This document shows positions 6,484 through 44,889 of a DNA stretch of 64,000 nt, piece after piece. The first letter of the stretch is position 1. Every line of letters starts with the position of its first letter. The stretch covers positions 315-64,314 of the forward strand of contig SVRL01000003.1 in the NCBI GenBank assembly GCA_015064845.1. The letters are read 5' to 3'. The position numbers and the translations under genes were made by a program. The notes beneath the pieces are model-generated. The model did not search any database, had not been told where the DNA came from, and worked only from the letters and a program-made list of their open reading frames with translations. This stretch comes from Oscillospiraceae bacterium. GTDB lineage: Bacteria > Bacillota > Clostridia > Oscillospirales > CAG-272.

Positions 6484-7787
6484 TGTCGGAAAATCAAATC
6501 ATTCAAAAAACAAATGAATTCGGAGAGACATATTTTTATACCAAACACAAAAGCGGTTTGGATATTTATGTGATTCCCAAAGATTTCGCCACAAATTACG
6601 CCGTTTTCGCAACGAAATACGGCGCGATCGACAATTGCTTCAAAACCGAAGGCGAAGAAAATTTCCATGAGGTTCCGGATGGAATCGCGCATTATCTGGA
6701 GCATAAAATGTTCGAAAACGAGGACGGTGTGGATACCTTTTCCCGTTTTGCGAAATACGGCGCAAGCGCCAACGCATATACTTCTTCGACTATGACGGCA
6801 TATCTGTTTTCCTGCACCAATCATCTGAAGGAAAATCTGGAAATTTTGCTGGATTACGTTTCCAAACCGTATTTCACACCCGAAAACGTGGAAAAAGAGA
6901 GAGGTATTATTGCGCAGGAAATCCGTATGTACGAGGATAATTCCGGAAGCGCCATTTATTACAATCTTTTGCAGGCAATGTACGAAAAACATCAAACCCG
7001 TGTGGACGTTGCGGGAACGGTGGAATCCATTTCCGAAATTACACCGGAACTTCTTTACGACTGTTACAATACCTTTTATAATTTTTCAAACATGACGCTT
7101 TGTGTTTCCGGCAGAACGGATATGCAAACGGTGCTTTCCATCGCGGACCGCGTTTTGCCCGAACGTGAACCGAAAGCCATTTACCGCCATTACCACGAAG
7201 AAAAAACGGAAGTTTTTCAATCCCGTGTGACGGAAGCGTTTGAAGTTTCCCGTCCGATGTTTTTGCTGGGCATCAAAGATATGGATATTTCCGAAAATGC
7301 GGAGATCCGCATGAAAAAGCGTGTGGCAATGAGCATTCTGACGGATATGCTTTTCGGACCGACTTCCGATTTTGCCATTGACGTATACGAAAGCGGTTTG
7401 GTCAACGGTTTTGATGCTTCCTACGACCATTCTTTTGAATGTTCCCGTATTTTCTTGGAAGGCGAAACGGATGACCCCGAAGCCTTTTATCAAAGTTTTC
7501 TTGCATATTTGGAAGAAATTCGTCAAAAAGGTCTTTGTGAAGAAGATTTCAACCGCATTAAGCGCGCAACCTACGCTTCTTACATCAAGGTTTTTGATTC
7601 CACGAAGCTTGCAAGGGAATTTACGCATATGATTCATGATGAATGCGATCCCTTTGCGTTCGGAGAAGCGATTAAAAACGCAACCTTTGATGAAGTAAAA
7701 ACATTGTTTCTTGCATTGTTCAAAGAAGAATTTTATGCCATGAGTATCGTTACTCCTCTGGATGGAAAGGACGATGAAAACGAATGA
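6483..7787 (+). CDS. M16-family zinc peptidase (pitrilysin/insulinase-like), catalytic subunit
   Basis: HYLEH zinc-binding HxxEH motif followed by a downstream E. Translationally coupled to both neighbours. Confidence 0.9.
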   Translation: MSENQIIQKTNEFGETYFYTKHKSGLDIYVIPKDFATNYAVFATKYGAIDNCFKTEGEENFHEVPDGIAHYLEHKMFENEDGVDTFSRFAKYGASANAYTSSTMTAYLFSCTNHLKENLEILLDYVSKPYFTPENVEKERGIIAQEIRMYEDNSGSAIYYNLLQAMYEKHQTRVDVAGTVESISEITPELLYDCYNTFYNFSNMTLCVSGRTDMQTVLSIADRVLPEREPKAIYRHYHEEKTEVFQSRVTEAFEVSRPMFLLGIKDMDISENAEIRMKKRVAMSILTDMLFGPTSDFAIDVYESGLVNGFDASYDHSFECSRIFLEGETDDPEAFYQSFLAYLEEIRQKGLCEEDFNRIKRATYASYIKVFDSTKLAREFTHMIHDECDPFAFGEAIKNATFDEVKTLFLALFKEEFYAMSIVTPLDGKDDENE

Positions 7788-9689: not shown

Positions 9690-9720
9690 ACCCCACTTGA
9701 TCCAAATAAAAAACAGTTGA

Positions 9721-9755
9721 GCCATGGACACCGTTTCGGAATCCATGGCTTTTTT
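9721..9755 (+). terminator. Rho-independent terminator of folD
   Basis: GCCATGGA (9721-9728) / TCCATGGC (9742-9749) followed by a T-run. Confidence 0.8.
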
Positions 9756-9860
9756 ATACTATAGGAAATTACGCAATTTAAACCTCGCCGTTTGCATTGT
9801 TTCGATATAAGAAAAACTTGGATAGGCGAGCAACCTCCAGTGGGTGTTACCCACTTTTTT
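9755..9860 (+). repeat. terminator-associated ~105-nt intergenic element, copy A1
   Basis: TATACTATAGGAAATT...AACCTCGCCGTTTGC...GGATAGGCGAGCAACC...AGTGGGTgttACCCACT plus T-run. Homologous copies at 16818, 27573 (minus strand) and 42829. Confidence 0.8.
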
Positions 9861-9935
9861 AACCTATAGGAAATTGCGATAGACAAGCCACAGATTTCAA
9901 ACAATCCGTTATTCCGGCGGGCGTTGCTCGCTTTT
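9861..9935 (+). repeat. shorter variant element, copy A2 (tandem to A1)
   Basis: Shares the 5' CTATAGGAAATTGCG motif and ends in hairpin GCGGGCgttGCTCGC plus TTTTT. The centre is divergent. Confidence 0.6.
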
Positions 9936-9991
9936 TGATTTCGATAAATATGAATTTTTATGAAACATTCGAAATAAAAATATGAATTTTA

Positions 9992-10021
9992 TTGACATGT
10001 GTATTCAAAATATGCTATAAT
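9992..10021 (+). promoter_or_regulatory. sigma-A-type promoter with extended -10
   Basis: TTGACA (9992-9997), 18-nt spacer, TGcTATAAT (TATAAT at 10016-10021). Located upstream of the CDS at 10144. Confidence 0.6.
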
Positions 10022-16617: not shown

Positions 16618-16712
16618 AAAATCATCCCTTTTTATCATAATCTTTACCTCTATTATAGCACAAAAAAAGAATTCTTGCAATGCATTACAAGAATTCTTAA
16701 AAAATGATTTTT

Positions 16713-16817
16713 TATACTATAGGAAATTGCGCAAATCAGTTGCGCTGTCGAGTGAAGCGTCAAGTTTGAATAAACTGCGATACGGCGGCAACCATCAGCG
16801 GCGATTCGCCACTTTTT
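16713..16817 (+). repeat. intergenic element copy B1 (family 5' and 3' ends, divergent centre)
   Basis: TATACTATAGGAAATTGCGCAA... ...GGCAACCATCAGCGGCGATTCGCCACT plus T-run. Confidence 0.7.
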
Positions 16818-16921
16818 TATGCTATAAGAAATTGCTCAATTTTAACCTCGCCGTTTGCGTAGTTTTGATGCAAGCAAACTTGGATAGGCGAGCAACCATT
16901 AGCGGCGATTCGCCGCTTTTT
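16818..16921 (+). repeat. intergenic element copy B2 (tandem to B1)
   Basis: TATGCTATAAGAAATTGCTCAATTTTAACCTCGCCGTTTGC...GGATAGGCGAGCAACCATTAGCGGCGAttCGCCGCT plus T-run. Its 3' end abuts the stop codon (16920-16922) of the convergent gene. Confidence 0.8.
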
Positions 16922-27572: not shown

Positions 27573-27679
27573 AAAAAGTGGGCAACGCCCACTCGAAGTT
27601 GCTCGCCTATCCCCAAGTTTTTCTTATATCGAAACAATGCAAACGGCGAGGTTTAAATTGCGTAATTTCCTATAGTATA
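27573..27679 (-). repeat. intergenic element copy C (inverted orientation)
   Basis: The reverse complement is almost identical to copy A1 over about 85 nt. Its terminal hairpin is AGTGGGCgttGCCCACT, against AGTGGGTgttACCCACT in A1. Confidence 0.85.
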
Positions 27680-27718
27680 AAAAATTCCGAACACGGTTTT
27701 GTGTTCGGAATTTTTGTC

Positions 27719-33572: not shown

Positions 33573-33785
33573 GGTGGGCTTCCTTTCATTTAAGATTAAA
33601 TTTGGCATATTTCGATATGTCTTCGCTATGTTTATGGTAACATAGAAAAGTGCGCGTGTCAACGAAAAATTGAGATTAAACGAATCTTTTGTTGATTTCC
33701 ATATCCTGAAAGAATTCTCTTTACTTTTTTCTTTTTTTGCAGTAAAATAAAATTATAAATTATTTTGTGAGAAAGGAATGTGATT

Positions 33786-35900
33786 ATGAGCATTCATCAA
33801 GCGACGTTTATTGGCGCGCCGACGGAGGCTTCTCCGATTTTCATGAAAAAATTATCGGTAAAGAATCCTCGGCAGAGCGAAATTGAAATTGCGGGTCTTG
33901 GTTTTTTTGAACTTTATGTCAATGGAAGAAAAGTTTCCGAAGATATTCTGGTTCCTCCCACCTCCGATTACGGAGAAAGAGATCTTTCTACGCTGCATTA
34001 TCCCATCAAGGATACGTTTTCGCATAGAGTGTATTATTGTAAATACAGTCTTTCCGAATATTTGATTGACGGCGAAAACACCTTGGAGGTTCAGCTTGGC
34101 GGAGGATATTATTGTCAGGAAGTGCGCACGGGCGAAGGCAAGCTTTCGTACGGAAAGCCGATCCTTGCTGTTTCATTAACGGTTGACGGAATAGAATATC
34201 TTTCCGATGAAAGCTGGACGTGGCGTGATTCCGTGATTGTTTCGGAGAACCTCTATACGGGTGAAGTGCATGATTTCCGTCACTGCGATTGTGAATGGAA
34301 ACCCGTCGATCTTGCAAAAGCGCCTTCGGGTAAACTTGAGCAAAGCGATTGTCCTCACGATAAGATCATACGCAAAATCAAGCCTGCCGTTGTTTTCCGC
34401 GACGGAGAACGCACTGTATACGATGCGGGCGTAAATCTTTCCGGCGTGGTCGGTTTTTGGCAGAAGGCAGAAGCGGGAGAAAAAACCGAAATCCGTTTTG
34501 CGGAACGGTTGGACGGTTCTTATGAACTGTTTACAGAAACCTCGGGACCGATTGTGCAAAGAGATATTTATATCAGTAACGGTAAATCGAATTTCTGTAT
34601 GCCGAAATTTGTATTTCATGGATTCCGTTATTTTGAAATCATAGGACAAGCGGAAGACGTTTGGGTGTATGAAATTCACGGCAATATGCCCCTTCGCGTA
34701 ACGTTTTCTTCCAATCATCCCGTTTTGAATTTTTTATTCACCGCTTCCGTAAGAAGTCTGTATTCCAATATGCATGCAGGTATCATTACGGACTGTCCGC
34801 ACAGAGAACGACTCGGATATACGGGGGACGGTCAGCTGACAGCCGATCTTGGACTGACGGTTCTTTCTTCCGAAAAATTTTATGAAAAATGGCTTCGTGA
34901 TATTGCGGACGGTCAGGATCCCGAAACGGGACATGTTCAGCACACTGCGCCTTTTCAGGGCGGCGGAGGCGGTCCCGGCGGATGGGGCGGCGCTATCGTG
35001 ATCGTTCCTTATATGCTTTGGATGCATCATAACCGTGAGGATATTTTGCGTACATATTATCCGAATATGAAAAAATATATCGCTTACATGGAATCCAGAA
35101 GCGAAAACGGCCTTGTTGTTCGTGAAGAAGAACGCGGATGGTGTTTGGGCGATTGGTGTACTCCCGATAAGATTACCATTCCCGAACCTTTCGTCAATAC
35201 GTATTTTCTTGTGAAATGCTTGGAATACGTTGCGGAAACTGCGCGTGTACTGGGAGATTCTCCCGAACCTTGGCTGAACAAGGCGGAAGAACGGAAACAG
35301 GCACTCCGCAAACACTATTATGATGAGAAAACGAATACCTATTGCGCGGATATTCAAGGCGCAAATGCGTTTGCGCTTGACATCGGCATTGGCAATGAAA
35401 ATATGATGAAAGCGCTCGTAGAGAAGTATGAGACGCTTGGCGCATTTGATACGGGAATCTTCGGAACGGATATTCTCATCCGCGTTCTTTTTGAGAACGG
35501 CTTCGGCGATACGGCAATGAAGCTCCTGACCTCGGAAAAAGAAAATTCTTTCGGCGCGTGGATGAACCGCGGAGAAACGACACTCTGTGAATATTGGGAC
35601 GGAAAAAAATCCCATAACCATCATATGTTCGGCGCGCCTTTGCGCTATGTGTTCTCACACGTTCTCGGCGTGAAGGACAGAGGCAAAACGACCTTGATTG
35701 CTCCCGTGGAAATTTCTTTGCCGATTCAATTGGAAGCGGATATGGAAACAAAGTTCGGAAATGTTTTCGTACGGCGCGAAATGACGGAAAAGGATGAAAC
35801 GCTTACCGTCCGCGCAGATCATAACGCTCTTTTCCGTTATCGGAATACGGAAATTACGCTGACTCCCAATGAAGAAACCGTATTTTATTTTGTTCGTTAA
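33786..35900 (+). CDS. alpha-L-rhamnosidase (GH78)
   Basis: ATG 33786 with RBS GAAAGGAA. ITDCPHRERLGYTGDGQL matches the GH78 DCPxRERLGxTGD signature. Confidence 0.87.
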   Translation: MSIHQATFIGAPTEASPIFMKKLSVKNPRQSEIEIAGLGFFELYVNGRKVSEDILVPPTSDYGERDLSTLHYPIKDTFSHRVYYCKYSLSEYLIDGENTLEVQLGGGYYCQEVRTGEGKLSYGKPILAVSLTVDGIEYLSDESWTWRDSVIVSENLYTGEVHDFRHCDCEWKPVDLAKAPSGKLEQSDCPHDKIIRKIKPAVVFRDGERTVYDAGVNLSGVVGFWQKAEAGEKTEIRFAERLDGSYELFTETSGPIVQRDIYISNGKSNFCMPKFVFHGFRYFEIIGQAEDVWVYEIHGNMPLRVTFSSNHPVLNFLFTASVRSLYSNMHAGIITDCPHRERLGYTGDGQLTADLGLTVLSSEKFYEKWLRDIADGQDPETGHVQHTAPFQGGGGGPGGWGGAIVIVPYMLWMHHNREDILRTYYPNMKKYIAYMESRSENGLVVREEERGWCLGDWCTPDKITIPEPFVNTYFLVKCLEYVAETARVLGDSPEPWLNKAEERKQALRKHYYDEKTNTYCADIQGANAFALDIGIGNENMMKALVEKYETLGAFDTGIFGTDILIRVLFENGFGDTAMKLLTSEKENSFGAWMNRGETTLCEYWDGKKSHNHHMFGAPLRYVFSHVLGVKDRGKTTLIAPVEISLPIQLEADMETKFGNVFVRREMTEKDETLTVRADHNALFRYRNTEITLTPNEETVFYFVR

Positions 35901-39028: not shown

Positions 39029-39448
39029 TTATACGACGGTTTGCGATTGTATGCCGTCGGTTCCTTCGCGGTAAAGCTTTGACGCCGAAATGGCTGCCGC
39101 GCGTTCATTGAGTCCGAAGCTGATGGTAATGGCGTTATTGACCTTTTGCATAAGTACGTCGTCAATATGTCCCATTTTTTCTCTGAGACGGGTCTTGTCA
39201 ATGGTACGTATCTGTTCCAGGAGAATCACGGAATCTTTGACGAGTCCGAAGCGTTCGGCATAAACGTCAATATGCGTAGGTAATTTCGCTTTGCCCAAAC
39301 GGCTGGTAATGGCGGCTGCAATGACGGTGGGACTGTATTTGTTTCCGATATCATTTTGAACGATGAGAACGGGACGGAGTCCGCCTTGTTCGCTTCCGAC
39401 GACAGGACTCAGATCCGCATAATAAATATCTCCTCTTTTTACGGTCAA
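39029..39448 (-). CDS. mazF: MazF/EndoA (PemK-family) endoribonuclease toxin with ~23-aa C-terminal extension
   Basis: [34 protein letters not shown]...LPTHI...[17 protein letters not shown] is collinear with Bacillus EndoA. TTG start with a GAAGGGG RBS. Confidence 0.9.
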
Positions 39449-41920: not shown

Positions 41921-41945
41921 ACTTGTGAAAGGTTGGATTATACCA

Positions 41946-42779
41946 ATGAAACTGAAGCGAATTCTATCGGTGCTTTTGCTGCTCTCCGTTTTGCTCAGCG
42001 TTGCCGCTTGTTCGTTCCTTTCCGTTTCCTCTTCCGATAAAGTGGAAACGACGGTTTACGACTATTTGAAAAACAAGTATCCCGATCTTGCTTTTGAAAT
42101 TAAAAGTTATACAAAGGATACTTATACCAGCGGCAGATATGTTTTTAGCGTTTTTTGTACGACTACCGCCGTTGATTTTACCGTTTACCATTCTTCTTTT
42201 TTGACAACAGACAGTTATTCTGTTGTTCACGTCAATGCTGACATGGAAAAATCTCTGCGTGACATTCTCGGTGAAGAACTTGACTCGCGGTATGCAGAAA
42301 CCGTTCAGTGGAAAAATCTTTATGCGGACGGAAGCGACGGCTACCGTTTCCGTAATATGGATATTACAAAAATGCCTTATGCGCCTACCGAAGTTTCGGA
42401 AATTTATCGGTTTGCTTTGAAGAACAATTCCTATGAAACGGAAACCGAAGCCGTGCAAGCCATGAAAAACGTGATTGCAAAGTTCGCGGATGCAGGAATT
42501 GTTCTGAACAAAATCGTTTTTCAGTTTTCTCTCGGCAAGGACACCGTTTTGCTGACTACCGATACATATACCGTTCAGACTGCGGCGGAGGAAACACTTG
42601 AAAATTTGCTCGTTCACATTAAAACAGCGCAGGAAACGGATACGCTTGTTGAAGTTGTTTACGGTTCGGATCTTAAAAAAGCGGAATACTTTTTGGAAAA
42701 CCAAACCGAAGATTCCGACGGAGGAGATTCCTCGGAAACATCCGGTACAGAACAGCAGACCGAAAATACAACGAAATAA
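41946..42779 (+). CDS. hypothetical lipoprotein
   Basis: Signal peptide with lipobox VAACS. Acidic low-complexity C-terminus. Terminator AGAGTTGA/TCAACTCT at 42792-42824. Confidence 0.75.
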   Translation: MKLKRILSVLLLLSVLLSVAACSFLSVSSSDKVETTVYDYLKNKYPDLAFEIKSYTKDTYTSGRYVFSVFCTTTAVDFTVYHSSFLTTDSYSVVHVNADMEKSLRDILGEELDSRYAETVQWKNLYADGSDGYRFRNMDITKMPYAPTEVSEIYRFALKNNSYETETEAVQAMKNVIAKFADAGIVLNKIVFQFSLGKDTVLLTTDTYTVQTAAEETLENLLVHIKTAQETDTLVEVVYGSDLKKAEYFLENQTEDSDGGDSSETSGTEQQTENTTK

Positions 42780-42828
42780 TTTTTATGAAAAAGAGTTGAA
42801 ACGGAAATGTTCCGAATCAACTCTTTTT

Positions 42829-42931
42829 TATACTATAGGAAATTGTCCAAAAACAACCTCGCCGTTTGTATTGTTTCGATATAAGAAAACTTGGATAGGC
42901 GAGCAACCATCAGCGGCGATTCGCCGCTTTA
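42829..42931 (+). repeat. intergenic element copy D
   Basis: TATACTATAGGAAATTGTCC...AACCTCGCCGTTTGT...GGATAGGCGAGCAACCATCAGCGGCGAttCGCCGCT. The hairpin ends at 42928, directly against the stop codon (42929-42931) of the convergent gene. Confidence 0.85.
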
Positions 42932-43450
42932 TCCCGTGTAGCTCGGGGCGAAAGCGAAACGATTGTGATCGTCGGCAAGCCGATCCCACGTTTCTGCATT
43001 CACGGTTCCCGTTACGGGTAATCGGTTGAACTTTTGAAACGTTCGAACCGCCTCTTCCGTTTTTTCATCGTATATTCCCGAAATATCCAATTTTGAAAAA
43101 ACGTCGTAAACAACTTCAACACCGGATAATAAAATCTGAATGATATAAACAAGTTCGCTTTTTTCTCCGTGTTTCACTTCGTAAGCGTTTCCGGGAAAAG
43201 GAAAAAGTGCAAGACCTTGGCGGATAAAGTTTCGTGCCATACGGTATGCGTTGGTAACGGCATTCCACGTTCCGAAGTCAACGATGCCTGTCGGAGGTAA
43301 ACCCATATTGCTTTGGAAGGTAAGGACGGCGCGCTCGGTTTCGGGACCGAAAATACCGTCGGGATTTACAGGGGGAACCATTCCGTCCGTTTGTCCGATC
43401 AAACGGAGCATGGTTTGCAGTTCAAAGATTTCGCCTTGCTTTTCTGTCAT
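42929..43450 (-). CDS. protein with two peptidoglycan-binding (PG_binding_1-like) repeats
   Basis: Two repeats of the form DGIFGPETERAVLTFQ...GLPPTGIVD...TW. Confidence 0.8.
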   Translation of the reverse strand: MTEKQGEIFELQTMLRLIGQTDGMVPPVNPDGIFGPETERAVLTFQSNMGLPPTGIVDFGTWNAVTNAYRMARNFIRQGLALFPFPGNAYEVKHGEKSELVYIIQILLSGVEVVYDVFSKLDISGIYDEKTEEAVRTFQKFNRLPVTGTVNAETWDRLADDHNRFAFAPSYTG

Positions 43451-43488
43451 ATATGTACTCCTTTCTTGTCATATAGGAAATTGCTCAA

Positions 43489-44889
43489 TCAATTTGCGGA
43501 AAGCGGATTTCCCGAAAACTGTCCGGGATTGCGATATTCGCCCGATCGTATATCGCTTTCAATGTCTGCGAGCGTATCCCAGAGAAGAGGTCCCACAATG
43601 CCGTCAACGGGAAAACCGAAAAGCGCTTCCGCGGCAAAAACGGCATCTCTTGTGGTTTCGTCAAAGACACCTGTGACGGGAATCGGCGGAATGGAATTAT
43701 ATACGTCGGCGGCGGTATTGATGAGATTCTGTAAAACGGTTACGTTTTCGCCTGTATCGCCAAGCTGAAGAAAAACGCCCGGAAAAGGAATGACCGCAGC
43801 ACCGATCTGTTCGGGTGTCAGACTGCGGATATCTCCGAGGTAATCATCGTAAAGCAGATTCCATGTGGCATCGTCCGTAATCCCCGTTTGCGGAAGACCG
43901 CTGAAAGCCTGAAATGCAATGATGGAATTTCTCGTTGCTTCATCATATACGCCGCTTGTTCCGGGATCGGGAATGGCGGCGTTAAAAAAAGAAACGGCGC
44001 TCAGGAAATACTGAATGATCTGTACGTTTTCGCCCGTGTCGCCGAGAGAAAGAACCCCCGGAAATTGCTTGGAAACATCCTCCAGACGAAGTCCTTCGCT
44101 TTCAAGTTCATTGAGCTTTTTCACGGCATTATAGACGAATTGGATTTTATACCACGTTGCTTTTCCCACAATACCGTCAGGAACGAGGTCGAAAACGCGC
44201 TGAAAGGTCAGTACGGCGTTTTCCGTATCTTCCCCGAAGAATCCATTGACGGGATTGATTTTGGGAATGGCCGGGTAATTGGAGGAAATACGGTTCAGAC
44301 GCATTTGAATAAATGCAACGTCATTTCCCGCAGAACCGCGTCGGAGAAGAATTTCCGGCTCGGAAGGTGTGATTTGTTCAATCGGAGCGTTATCCACGAG
44401 GGAAATATTGTTTCCGTAATATCTTGTCAAAATATCAAATGCACCGAGACCTTGTTCCGCAAGAGAAACGGTGCCCCATTGAGAAAGTCCGTTGCAGGTG
44501 GTTGTGGTTCCGTTGCAGTAGACGGCGAACAGCGGTTCTACGTTTCCGTTTCTTATGATATAACGGTTGAAAATTTCATCCACCAAACGACTGATGTTTT
44601 CAAAAATATCCCTGCCGTTGACGAAGGATTGGTCGATTCCCGTGCTGTTTGTAATATCAAAATCATAGCCGAGAGAGGGATAATATTCAGTGTAGATCCG
44701 GTTCAAAGCAAAAGAAATTTGCGCTAAAATATTTGCCCGTAACGCACTTTCGGGCCATGTGGGATAAATTTCACTGGAAGCAACGTTTTTGATGTAATCG
44801 GGAAAAGAAACGGTTACGTTCGGTGCATTGCTGTCGGGCGGTCCGAGATGTACACGGACGGTTTCCGGAATAATGGGAAGATTTGGCAT
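43489..44889 (-). CDS. peptidoglycan-binding protein, SleC-like N-terminal domain plus three PG_binding_1 repeats
   Basis: N-terminus IPETVRVHLGPPDSNAPNVTVSFPDYIKNVASSEIYPTWPESALRANILAQISFALNRIYTEYY, followed by three G(F/V)(F/Y)(G/D)E(D/A/T)T...FQ...L...G repeats. Confidence 0.8.
   Translation of the reverse strand: MPNLPIIPETVRVHLGPPDSNAPNVTVSFPDYIKNVASSEIYPTWPESALRANILAQISFALNRIYTEYYPSLGYDFDITNSTGIDQSFVNGRDIFENISRLVDEIFNRYIIRNGNVEPLFAVYCNGTTTTCNGLSQWGTVSLAEQGLGAFDILTRYYGNNISLVDNAPIEQITPSEPEILLRRGSAGNDVAFIQMRLNRISSNYPAIPKINPVNGFFGEDTENAVLTFQRVFDLVPDGIVGKATWYKIQFVYNAVKKLNELESEGLRLEDVSKQFPGVLSLGDTGENVQIIQYFLSAVSFFNAAIPDPGTSGVYDEATRNSIIAFQAFSGLPQTGITDDATWNLLYDDYLGDIRSLTPEQIGAAVIPFPGVFLQLGDTGENVTVLQNLINTAADVYNSIPPIPVTGVFDETTRDAVFAAEALFGFPVDGIVGPLLWDTLADIESDIRSGEYRNPGQFSGNPLSAN

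Follow-up and report, generated by a model that had tools for sequence, protein, structure and literature searches.

The 64-kb window studied here, that is, the whole analysed stretch of 64,000 nucleotides (nt) of contig SVRL01000003.1, derives from an uncultured Clostridia bacterium of ruminant-type metagenomes and carries a family of short (about 70–105 nt), non-coding intergenic elements. Six copies (A1, A2, B1, B2, C and D) and one solo head are present, and the unit is a miniature transcription unit of three modules, a 5′ head, a body and a 3′ hairpin. The RNA structure of the copies covaries, the copies are precisely present or absent at T-runs in related genomes, they lie in a biased orientation, and they are widely distributed as part of a bigger superfamily, apparently not described before, whose members in gut Clostridia have a single 23-base head in common. 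We regard it as probable that the elements are non-autonomous mobile mini transcription units, cassettes resembling the genes of small RNAs (sRNAs), which settle in a fixed orientation in T-tracts, mostly those of intrinsic terminators. The original prediction had offered a choice between a non-autonomous mobile element that targets terminator T-tracts and a multicopy sRNA gene. As we read the elements, the second possibility would be compatible with the first and not exclusive of it.

A covariance model (R1), trained on 30 copies from the window and from related metagenome-assembled genomes (MAGs), was run over the window without filtering. It recovered exactly the six copies and the fragment that had been listed from the sequence, with scores of 100.6 bits for A1, 95.9 for D, 93.5 for C, 92.8 for B2, 42.8 for B1, 29.7 for A2 and 19.3 for the fragment, plus one weak extra match. 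The class-i core CTCGCCGTTTG-N4-GTTTYGAT-N2-AAG occurs four times in the window, compared to 0.00 expected from 100 shuffles, and the head core TAYAGGAAATTRC is found in seven copies at the claimed sites, each exact or with one mismatch. A1 and C are 94% identical; identity of the remaining full-length pairs (A1, B1, B2, C and D) is 69–84%. A terminator scan called the 3′ hairpins of A1, A2 and B2 (three per region versus 0.3–0.4 expected), and the 3′ terminators of C and D were seen by RNA folding. The weak extra match (34358–34459, plus strand, 22.6 bits, E of about 0.004 by a rough calibration) is located inside the open reading frame (ORF) 33780–35900 and reads ..ACGCAAAATCAAGCCTGCCGTTGTTTTCCGCG..GATGCGGGCG; it may be due to chance or may be a very old copy that was absorbed by coding sequence.

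The head has the form T5-6-A-nn-CTATAGGAAATTGC, with nn being genome-specific, and contains the segment ATAGGAAATT alongside TAnnCT. The 5′ consensus block described earlier is real, but it is longer than was stated (T6-A-nn-CTATAGGAAATTGC). The head is followed by about 8–10 variable nt, a long irregular hairpin, a linker of 5–8 nt, a GC hairpin and a T-run; the 5′ segment of class i reads GGAAAUUGC. At the base of the body hairpin, P1 is almost invariant (ACCUCGCCG / AUAGGCGAGCA, CUCGCC/GGCGAG), while the upper part, P2, varies and covaries. The 3′ hairpin (GYGGGYGTTRCCCRC or GCGGCGATTCGCCGC) is GC-rich, has a stem of 6–7 bp and a 3-nt loop, and forms a terminator together with the following T-run.

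Folding of single sequences resulted in an unpaired 5′ tail of about 20 nt, a hairpin and a terminator. The z-scores of the class-i copies A1, B2, C and D range from −1.8 to −2.6, and for A2 and B1 the folding does not surpass that of shuffled sequence (z of +0.1 and +0.4). In the alignment of 30 copies, 88% of the cells are paired versus 37–50% when the 3′ partners are slid by 1–3 columns, both partners have changed in 11 of the 21 pairs, and the covariation score reaches 0.263 compared to 0.136 ± 0.010 in shuffles. In 62 model-aligned copies P1 covaries across classes, from CUCGCC/GGCGAG in class i to CCGCCG/CGGCGG in class i-b; the pairing of CTCGCC with GGCGAG had been proposed before. G-U pairs exceed A-C mismatches by 91 to 30 on the head strand of these copies, and this excess indicates that the fold is selected on the strand running from head to terminator. 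As the original prediction had noted, the 70–105 nt elements contain no conserved ORF. A small frame (AGGA-N11-ATG, with a length of 29 codons), seen in some RGIG copies, was considered and rejected, as the ATG is missing from the copies of the window and from most others.

Relatives for comparison were gathered through homologues of the PHP-domain protein that adjoins locus B, and the contigs of these homologues were fetched. The contigs of the same strain (L001–L006) are identical to the window at loci A and B and hence uninformative. Contig L123 of a related species is collinear with positions 7233–28387 of the window at about 85.6% nt identity. It aligned in four blastn segments with breaks at 9753/9945, 16714/16917 and 27577/27677, corresponding to A1+A2, B1+B2 and C. 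L123 is thus without elements at all three loci that it covers, the junctions are inside T-runs, and no head was found across its 21 kb.

At locus A the target is the intrinsic terminator of folD (9722–9755, plus strand), a hairpin GCCATGGA..TCCATGGC with its T-run. A1 (class i, 9750–9860, plus strand) comprises T6 at 9750–9755, the head A-TA-CTATAGGAAATTAC at 9756–9772, P1, the terminator hairpin at 9839–9855 and T6 at 9855–9860. It is followed directly by the short variant A2 (9861–9936, plus strand) with the head AACCTATAGGAAATTGC, a unique body of 40 nt and an imperfect terminator at 9916–9932, then T5. Just head and terminator of A2 are shared with other copies, and its body has no relative in the fetched loci. 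The folD hairpin is followed by TTTTCTTTTCC in L123, and by TTTTTT(ATAC..A1..A2..CTCGC)TTTTTGATTTCG in the window, with the inserted DNA in brackets. L117, a more distant metagenome contig and the useful one among seven short contigs from a metagenome scan with a neighbouring protein, is likewise empty at this locus, so that in both orthologues the downstream spacer follows the folD terminator directly. The A2 body (9878–9915) loosely resembles the folD terminator hairpin at 9712–9756 (AAGCCA..GA..AATCCGT; 18-nt arms with 78% complementarity). This similarity is statistically unconvincing, but A2 may have been assembled from a head, a degenerated version of the target hairpin and a terminator.

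Locus B harbours B1 (class i-b with the stem CCGCCG/CGGCGG, 16708–16818, head at 16708–16730) and B2 (class i, 16819–16921, head ATGCTATAAGAAATTGC, terminator at 16901–16917 and T5), both on the plus strand. The 3′ part of B1 matches the class i-b copies of RGIG2017, a sister class. The empty site of L123 reads ..AATGAG/TTTTTAATCAAAG (the slash marks the junction), and the filled site reads ..AATGA-TTTTTT(ATAC..B1..B2..CGCCGC)TTTTTAATCAAAG. The terminal T-run of this locus is the complement of the stop codon and an A-run of the convergent PHP-domain gene. The hairpin at 16667–16698 is the terminator of this minus-strand gene, and the T-run of the element lies 8 nt past it. The original prediction had stated that in four loci the element starts exactly at the T-run of a preceding hairpin; this holds after the folD terminator, but not at locus B. 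We also observed that the 16667–16698 hairpin overlaps the promoter of trkH (TTGCAA-17-TATAAT), and that the PHP-domain gene has its stop codon (16920) on one side of B1 and B2 and its terminator (16698–16667) on the other. The 3′ untranslated region (UTR) of the PHP-domain mRNA should consequently carry both elements in antisense.

Copy C (class i, 27573–27684, minus strand) is inserted into the terminator T-run of a DUF4838 gene, in a space where genes converge. In L123 the site reads ..GTGTTCGGAAT/TTTTCATCTTCAG, in short GGAAT/TTTTCATC, and in the window it reads ..GTGTTCGGAAT-TTTTTT(ATACTATAGG...GCCCAC)TTTTTATATTCAAT. Copy D (class i, 42824–42931, plus strand) follows the terminator of the gene at 41925–42779, and has a short T-run (TTTA) that shares bases with the stop codon of the convergent gene 42929–43450. 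The fragment, a solo head CATATAGGAAATTGCTCAATCAA at 43470–43492 (plus strand), is an exact 13-mer match and has no T-run, body or terminator. It is located in a 38-nt spacer between two minus-strand PG_binding_1 genes, antisense to both, and the orthologous spacer of L126 contains no head.

Further variation was found beyond L123. In L126, a contig whose PHP-domain protein is 80% identical to that of the window, two class-i copies stand straight after the terminator of the PHP-domain gene and are co-oriented with it, whereas B1 and B2 of the window are antisense to this gene. The L126 copies are insertions independent of locus B, in opposite orientation at the same gene end. Locus D varies within the species of the window, to which L132 and L127 belong: at 2738–2935 L132 carries a full class-i copy with another terminator type (GTGGGCGTTGCCCAC) and a 47-nt remnant of a second copy, with a degenerate head (ACTTATGGATATGGAAGTTTGC ... 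CGCCGCTTTA). Copy D of the window looks like a fusion or deletion derivative of two such tandem copies. In RGIG1744 (L097, 81% identity to the window) locus C is filled, with P1 broken, the terminator gone and the head intact. A1 and C, unlinked at a distance of 18 kb, are both missing from L123; together with their 94% identity this would point to recent copying. Taken together, the empty and filled sites indicate that copies are gained at T-runs and may be kept for some time while decaying, and that either their loss is precise or the same terminator is hit repeatedly. Insertion polymorphism in related strains and copies outside the window had both been named in advance as checks. The former was found as described, and R1 detected 59 class-i copies in related MAG loci.

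A scan for the head with the pattern TTTTANNCTATARGAAATTRC over 185,579 species genomes returned at least 109 genomic DNA stretches versus about 17 expected by chance. Among the matches listed, about a dozen are in unrelated phyla and resemble the chance background. The remaining head loci (more than 90) are from MAGs of gut Clostridia, namely Lachnospiraceae, Blautia, Roseburia, Hungatella, Acetatifactor, Eubacterium, Ruminococcus, Oscillospiraceae and ruminant "RGIG" Clostridia. The bodies behind these heads form, among the matches listed, eight clusters and 56 singletons unrelated to each other, with classes i and i-b confined to RGIG-type MAGs. A Lachnospiraceae class combines GCGACAGTGTAAACC with a long AAGGAGAAUGC hairpin, and a third class reads GCTCGGATTGCCACGAG. 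Class iii of Blautia and other Lachnospiraceae (about 135 nt, up to three in tandem; L091 3850–4260, L042, L113, L080, L050, L102) has an inverted head copy and an A-run 3–5 nt after the head. T-run, head, inverted copy and A-run form a palindrome of about 45 nt, in which the nn positions match between the arms. A stringent terminator follows within 200 nt in 79 of 141 heads, typically at a distance of about 85–103 nt, and many units are in tandem. In L012 (pgk), L070 and L079 the head stands directly before protein genes and after a terminator, with no other promoter candidate there. That the head is nearly identical across orders while the bodies diverge argues for a conserved host factor, either RNA polymerase with a regulator or a mobilising protein.

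Some individual loci of the superfamily are of interest in their own right. In RGIG3846 (L040, 1441–1754, minus strand) three tandem class-i bodies carry another 5′ module, TTTTGTCAGCCTCATGTCATTGCAAGCAATAA, in place of the head, which shows that heads and bodies are exchangeable; the same reshuffling concerns the terminator types (GTT, ATT and ACA loops) of the body classes. The GCTCGGATTGCCACGAG... class occurs in three Lachnospiraceae MAGs (L010, L017, L025) at an orthologous site, right after one stop codon and just upstream of the start of the next gene, whose product we take, by eye from its N-terminal sequence, to be folC/Mur-type ligase-like. The terminator of this element appears to serve the upstream gene, as would be expected of a fixed and possibly co-opted copy.

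The heads of the superfamily are associated with terminators. An upstream stringent hairpin is abutted by the T-run in 72 of 141 heads from other genomes (51%), compared to 237 of 1631 control TTTTTA sites (14.5%). The upstream gene is co-oriented with the head in 77 cases and opposed in 31, while the downstream gene shows no bias (62 versus 53). The orientation is constant, with the T-run preceding the head. Before array-internal heads the T-run has six T in 10 of 10 cases and terminal T-runs vary from three to six, which fits a T6 owned by the element and a target T-run borrowed by its 3′ hairpin. Together with the empty sites, the independent L126 insertions and the variation at locus D, these numbers bear out the proposal of a non-autonomous mobile element at terminator T-tracts. 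In L113 (1982–2260) a class iii element starts at the terminator T-run of a T-box leader (Rfam T-box, 95.6 bits, 1982–2220; head at 2238) and sits between the riboswitch-like attenuator and the DNA 3′ of the leader. Targets of insertion thus include attenuator terminators.

Could an ordinary chromosomal family of sRNA genes produce the same picture? Such a family would share a promoter or operator, would multiply by tandem duplication and shrink by deletion between T-runs with no dedicated mobility, and its link to terminators would arise from compact intergenic space. The layout of the copies is typical of sRNAs (unpaired 5′ tail, covarying hairpin, terminator), a −10-like hexamer is conserved, the head also precedes protein genes like the promoter of a regulon, and the orthologous copy C in RGIG1744 demonstrates that copies can be stable. 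However, tandem duplication cannot place A1 and C 18 kb apart, the arrays consist of unlike classes (A1/A2, B1/B2) and not of duplicates, the T-run junctions are exact at three loci, one gene end was hit in both orientations in two species, and co-orientation with the upstream gene is biased. Six copies and a solo head per 64 kb are also far denser than any sRNA regulon known to us. We therefore consider this explanation unlikely.

Regarding the mobile transcription units, we propose the following course of events. The element would insert one way round at or within a run of at least five T, and in intergenic DNA the usual target would be the T-tract of an intrinsic terminator. The resident hairpin would keep a T-run, namely the T6 brought by the element, and the 3′ hairpin of the element would take over the T-run of the target and thereby become a terminator. 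As insertion recreates its own target, this course would explain the head-to-tail arrays of unlike copies (A1-A2, B1-B2). Fixed orientation, scar-free sites and the lack of inverted repeats are easier to reconcile with single-strand (HUH-type) or site-specific recombination than with a DDE transposase. The element takes along DNA that precedes every plausible start site, which makes an RNA intermediate unlikely.

The units are bracketed by terminators and would be expressible only by initiation inside the head of about 25 nt, so we infer transcription from the head, giving an sRNA of about 85–95 nt per copy. The head holds TAnnCT 5–7 nt before GGAAAUU. A census of 60 model-defined copies found TAnnnT kept in 46 of them in one of two registers: 9 of 12 copies in which CTATAGG is changed to CCATAGG or TCATAGG regain the hexamer one register over, as TACCAT or TATCAT. 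Most likely, the head is a weak or regulated promoter of the sigma-A type with a conserved initial transcribed or operator segment, and it may also be the recognition end for a mobilising enzyme. The palindromic heads of class iii suggest a dimeric or hairpin-binding protein. Other identities of the head were considered. A promoter of the T7/SP6 type or a phage origin, suggested by the resemblance of CACTATAGG to those promoters, was dropped, as the head has no match in 2.9 million viral contigs. For sigma-H, sigma-54, ECF, sigma-E/K/F/G, CodY, Spo0A, CcpA and Rex, compared by eye with their consensus sequences, spacing or key bases fail. A putative second element is not conserved between classes. 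The reverse-complemented head (AATTTCCTATAG) has TTCCTATA in common with what we take to be the XerC arm of Firmicutes dif, with the junction at the would-be central region. This resemblance is weak and post hoc (about 2% chance per motif, with about 30 motifs tried), the fetched DNA contains no dif site, and it serves as a lead only.

Several observations weigh against the elements being mobile transcription units. All relatives used for comparison come from MAGs or metagenome contigs. The more distant RGIG1744 has an element at locus C and the closer L123 has none, which needs either precise loss or two hits on one terminator. Both junctions are T-runs (six T on the left, three to six on the right), and a duplicated TTTTT would look like an element-borne T6. 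No terminal inverted repeats were found in A1+A2, C and D; the search gave internal hairpins only, with the head unlinked to the 3′ end. No transposase, recombinase or reverse transcriptase (RT) adjoins any copy: the 53 ORFs after heads are unrelated housekeeping genes, and the arrays of L040 are surrounded by genes for PlsY, DAP dehydrogenase, MutY and an AraC-family protein. A phmmer search of the ORFs of at least 70 amino acids in the fetched loci (about 1.1 Mb in total, so that a partner enzyme may lie elsewhere in the genomes) gave no hit for a TnpA of the IS200 type, which is a weak test. Other points concern the promoter. Upstream of the T-run there is no information content that could represent a −35 box or upstream element; a canonical promoter of the same organism is TTGACA-18-TATAAT at 9992–10021. 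Fourteen of the 60 copies, including both L126 copies, are without any TAnnnT, and considering also the lacking −35 box, the promoter reading may be wrong or many copies silent. The invariant ATAGGAAATTGC downstream of the hexamer is outside a sigma-A reading. In class iii the entire head including the T-run pairs with its own inverted copy, which is more in keeping with a hairpin of DNA or RNA than with a simple promoter.

Two further mechanisms of mobilisation have to be weighed. In a "peel and paste" transposition as known for IS200/IS605, an HUH transposase (Y1) encoded elsewhere would excise the top strand between two signals, each a hairpin with a T-run, and the lagging-strand template would receive it again 3′ of a T-run, leaving no inverted repeats or duplication and scar-free empty sites. 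Missing inverted repeats, scar-free sites, a fixed orientation to the target, a subterminal hairpin near the 3′ end and structure selected on one strand would all fit. The CAAAA 5′ of the foot of the body hairpin could guide cleavage at TTTT, as in the mechanism of IS608. Five of the six window copies are on the strand with positive GC skew, i.e., on the lagging-strand template, but this bias is confounded with gene orientation. The ends of IS608 and ISDra2 are conserved hairpins, whereas the left and right hairpins of the present elements are unrelated and the conserved module, the head, is linear. Moreover, the bodies are wholly different between classes behind a constant head, and the weak search for TnpA gave no hit. 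Transposition of this kind thus appears improbable to us.

The second mechanism is a spread through RNA in the manner of SINEs, with a U-tailed transcript that anneals to the A-run opposite a T-tract and is copied by a resident RT of the group II intron or G2L type. This would account for the T-tract target, the fixed orientation, the obligatory 3′ terminator, the variable terminal T-run and also for a 5′-truncated copy in L092 (CGCCGCTTTTT/ATAGG). However, a sigma-A promoter upstream of the start would not be copied, yet T6-A-nn-CT travels with every copy. The scar-free empty sites and the patchy locus C would need precise deletions, and no RT is located near any copy. It is highly improbable that the elements spread in this way.

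Considering the copies without a −10-like hexamer and the palindromic heads of class iii, the elements could also be domesticated or neutral terminator-like repeats similar to SPRITE, REP or BIME. Any role would then be at the level of DNA or termination, such as the insulation or reinforcement of terminators, with no discrete functional sRNA, and the head would be a protein recognition site only. Each copy brings a terminator to a gene 3′ end, often between convergent genes, and the minimal members of the superfamily (L009, L033) have little beyond head and terminator. On the other hand, termination needs neither the compensatory changes nor the 3:1 excess of G-U over A-C nor the near-invariant P1. 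TAnnnT is retained in two registers, and the RGIG1744 copy keeps its head despite the loss of the terminator. These data leave little room for repeats that act as terminators alone. A more far-reaching version of our own proposal is that the superfamily defined by the head is a hitherto unrecognised class of self-propagating sRNA genes, which home to intrinsic terminators by integration directed by structure or T-tract and thereby regenerate their target, with a conserved chromosomal enzyme of gut Clostridia (such as a tyrosine recombinase or HUH nuclease) reading the 23-nt head. We put this forward as a tentative and rather doubtful idea.

The elements could not be assigned to a known RNA family or repeat. 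The whole window gave no hit with Rfam 15 at gathering thresholds, 16 loci with other head classes gave only tmRNA and T-box away from the elements, and at E ≤ 10 the region 9700–9960 gave only a terminator-like match to TEG147 (20 bits versus a threshold of 56). This agrees with the earlier statement that the element was not recognised as any named RNA or repeat family. Classes i and ii have no blastn match in PLSDB plasmids. Literature searches by sequence string and topic retrieved primers and unrelated papers only, and no description of the elements.

The pneumococcal repeats SPRITE, BOX and RUP are small (<200 bp), non-coding, interspersed and apparently non-autonomous elements of a Firmicute (PMC3049150). 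SPRITE is terminator-like with A/T homopolymer flanks and consists of an 18-bp duplex with an AAAA/TTTT inverted terminus and a long U-rich tract, BOX is built of modules and differs in length between copies, inverted repeats at the termini as well as duplications are features of BOX and RUP, and no empty sites were found for SPRITE (PMC3049150). Like these repeats, the present elements are located at gene 3′ ends and between convergent genes, have a predicted fold if transcribed, and are restricted to a few related species with differing density (PMC3049150). We suggest that these repeats are the nearest analogues by their properties. They have no sequence similarity to our elements, which combine a linear 5′ head with an ordinary short GC terminator, have demonstrable empty sites and share their head across bacterial orders with unrelated bodies. 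In contrast to SPRITE, the flanks are direct and not inverted T-runs, and the stems are 6–7 bp with 3-nt loops.

Correia elements (CREE) of Neisseria and bcr1 of the Bacillus cereus group are about 100–155 bp in length, occur in at least 100 copies, contain transcription signals or create them, are transcribed, form stable RNA folds and differ in presence between strains. They have terminal inverted repeats, cause duplication of TA (Correia) or TTTAT (bcr1) and are limited to one genus or group. The present elements differ in having no inverted repeats, in their oriented position at T-runs and in sharing only the head between lineages. The miniatures of IS200/IS605 (PATEs) carry similar hairpins at both ends that are read by TnpA and have targets such as TTAC or TTGAT. 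Like our elements, they have no inverted repeats and apparently no duplication, and both insert in one orientation 3′ of a short target, have subterminal hairpins, are excised without scars and follow a single-strand logic. However, the body hairpin (CUCGCC...GGCGAG) and the 3′ hairpin of our elements are unrelated to each other, and their conserved end is linear. Class C group II introns insert right after intrinsic terminators in the orientation of these, and are ribozymes of at least 400–700 nt, usually with an ORF for an RT. The target preference alone is shared, as the present elements have at most 105 nt, no ribozyme domains and no Rfam intron match.

Several sRNA genes of about 90–110 nt per genome, sometimes in tandem, are known from LhrC1-5, Qrr1-5 and the csRNAs; each gene is framed by a promoter and a terminator, and promoter or operator is conserved. 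These have 2–7 copies at fixed orthologous loci and conserved seeds; the families are not known to show polymorphic insertions at terminators or an exchange of bodies behind one unchanging head. With classical miniature inverted-repeat transposable elements (MITEs) our elements have in common that they are short, non-coding and multicopy, while no terminal inverted repeats were found, nor, in the fetched loci, a transposase-encoding partner. The putative mobile promoters of prokaryotes described by the van Passel group are near-identical promoter-like segments before non-homologous sequences within and between genomes (PMC3575422). Their definition covers similar upstream regions of protein genes only, whereas the present head is mostly found on short terminated non-coding units with mapped junctions. 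The elements thus lack the defining features of classical MITEs, of IS200/IS605 ends, of SPRITE and of every Rfam family.

Small repeats that carry transcription signals are known in a few pathogens, and we found none described for the dominant gut Clostridia. It is unusual that a head of 23 nt is near-invariant across at least two orders with wholly different sequence in the 60–130 nt downstream. Positioned in terminator T-tracts, the elements equip gene ends with a promoter-like site and with another terminator. If they are transcribed, many gut commensals would have large, strain-variable sets of unannotated small RNAs and of antisense or portable promoters, as exemplified by B1/B2 antisense to a 3′ UTR, by solo heads antisense to genes and by heads before pgk and others. 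This would bear on the annotation of MAGs, on differences in expression between strains and on the origin of new sRNAs and promoters. If the chemistry of integration is new, the elements would represent a terminator-directed, orientation-specific insertion system of about 100 nt, and if they indeed are self-propagating sRNA genes, this would be a new mode of transposition, by which small RNAs and portable promoters are spread in dozens to hundreds over the genomes of Lachnospirales and Oscillospirales. Exact and scar-free presence or absence makes the elements useful strain markers. Besides the elements, the window contains a gene for a PemK-family toxin (39029–39448, minus strand; Pfam mark from L127) amid housekeeping genes.

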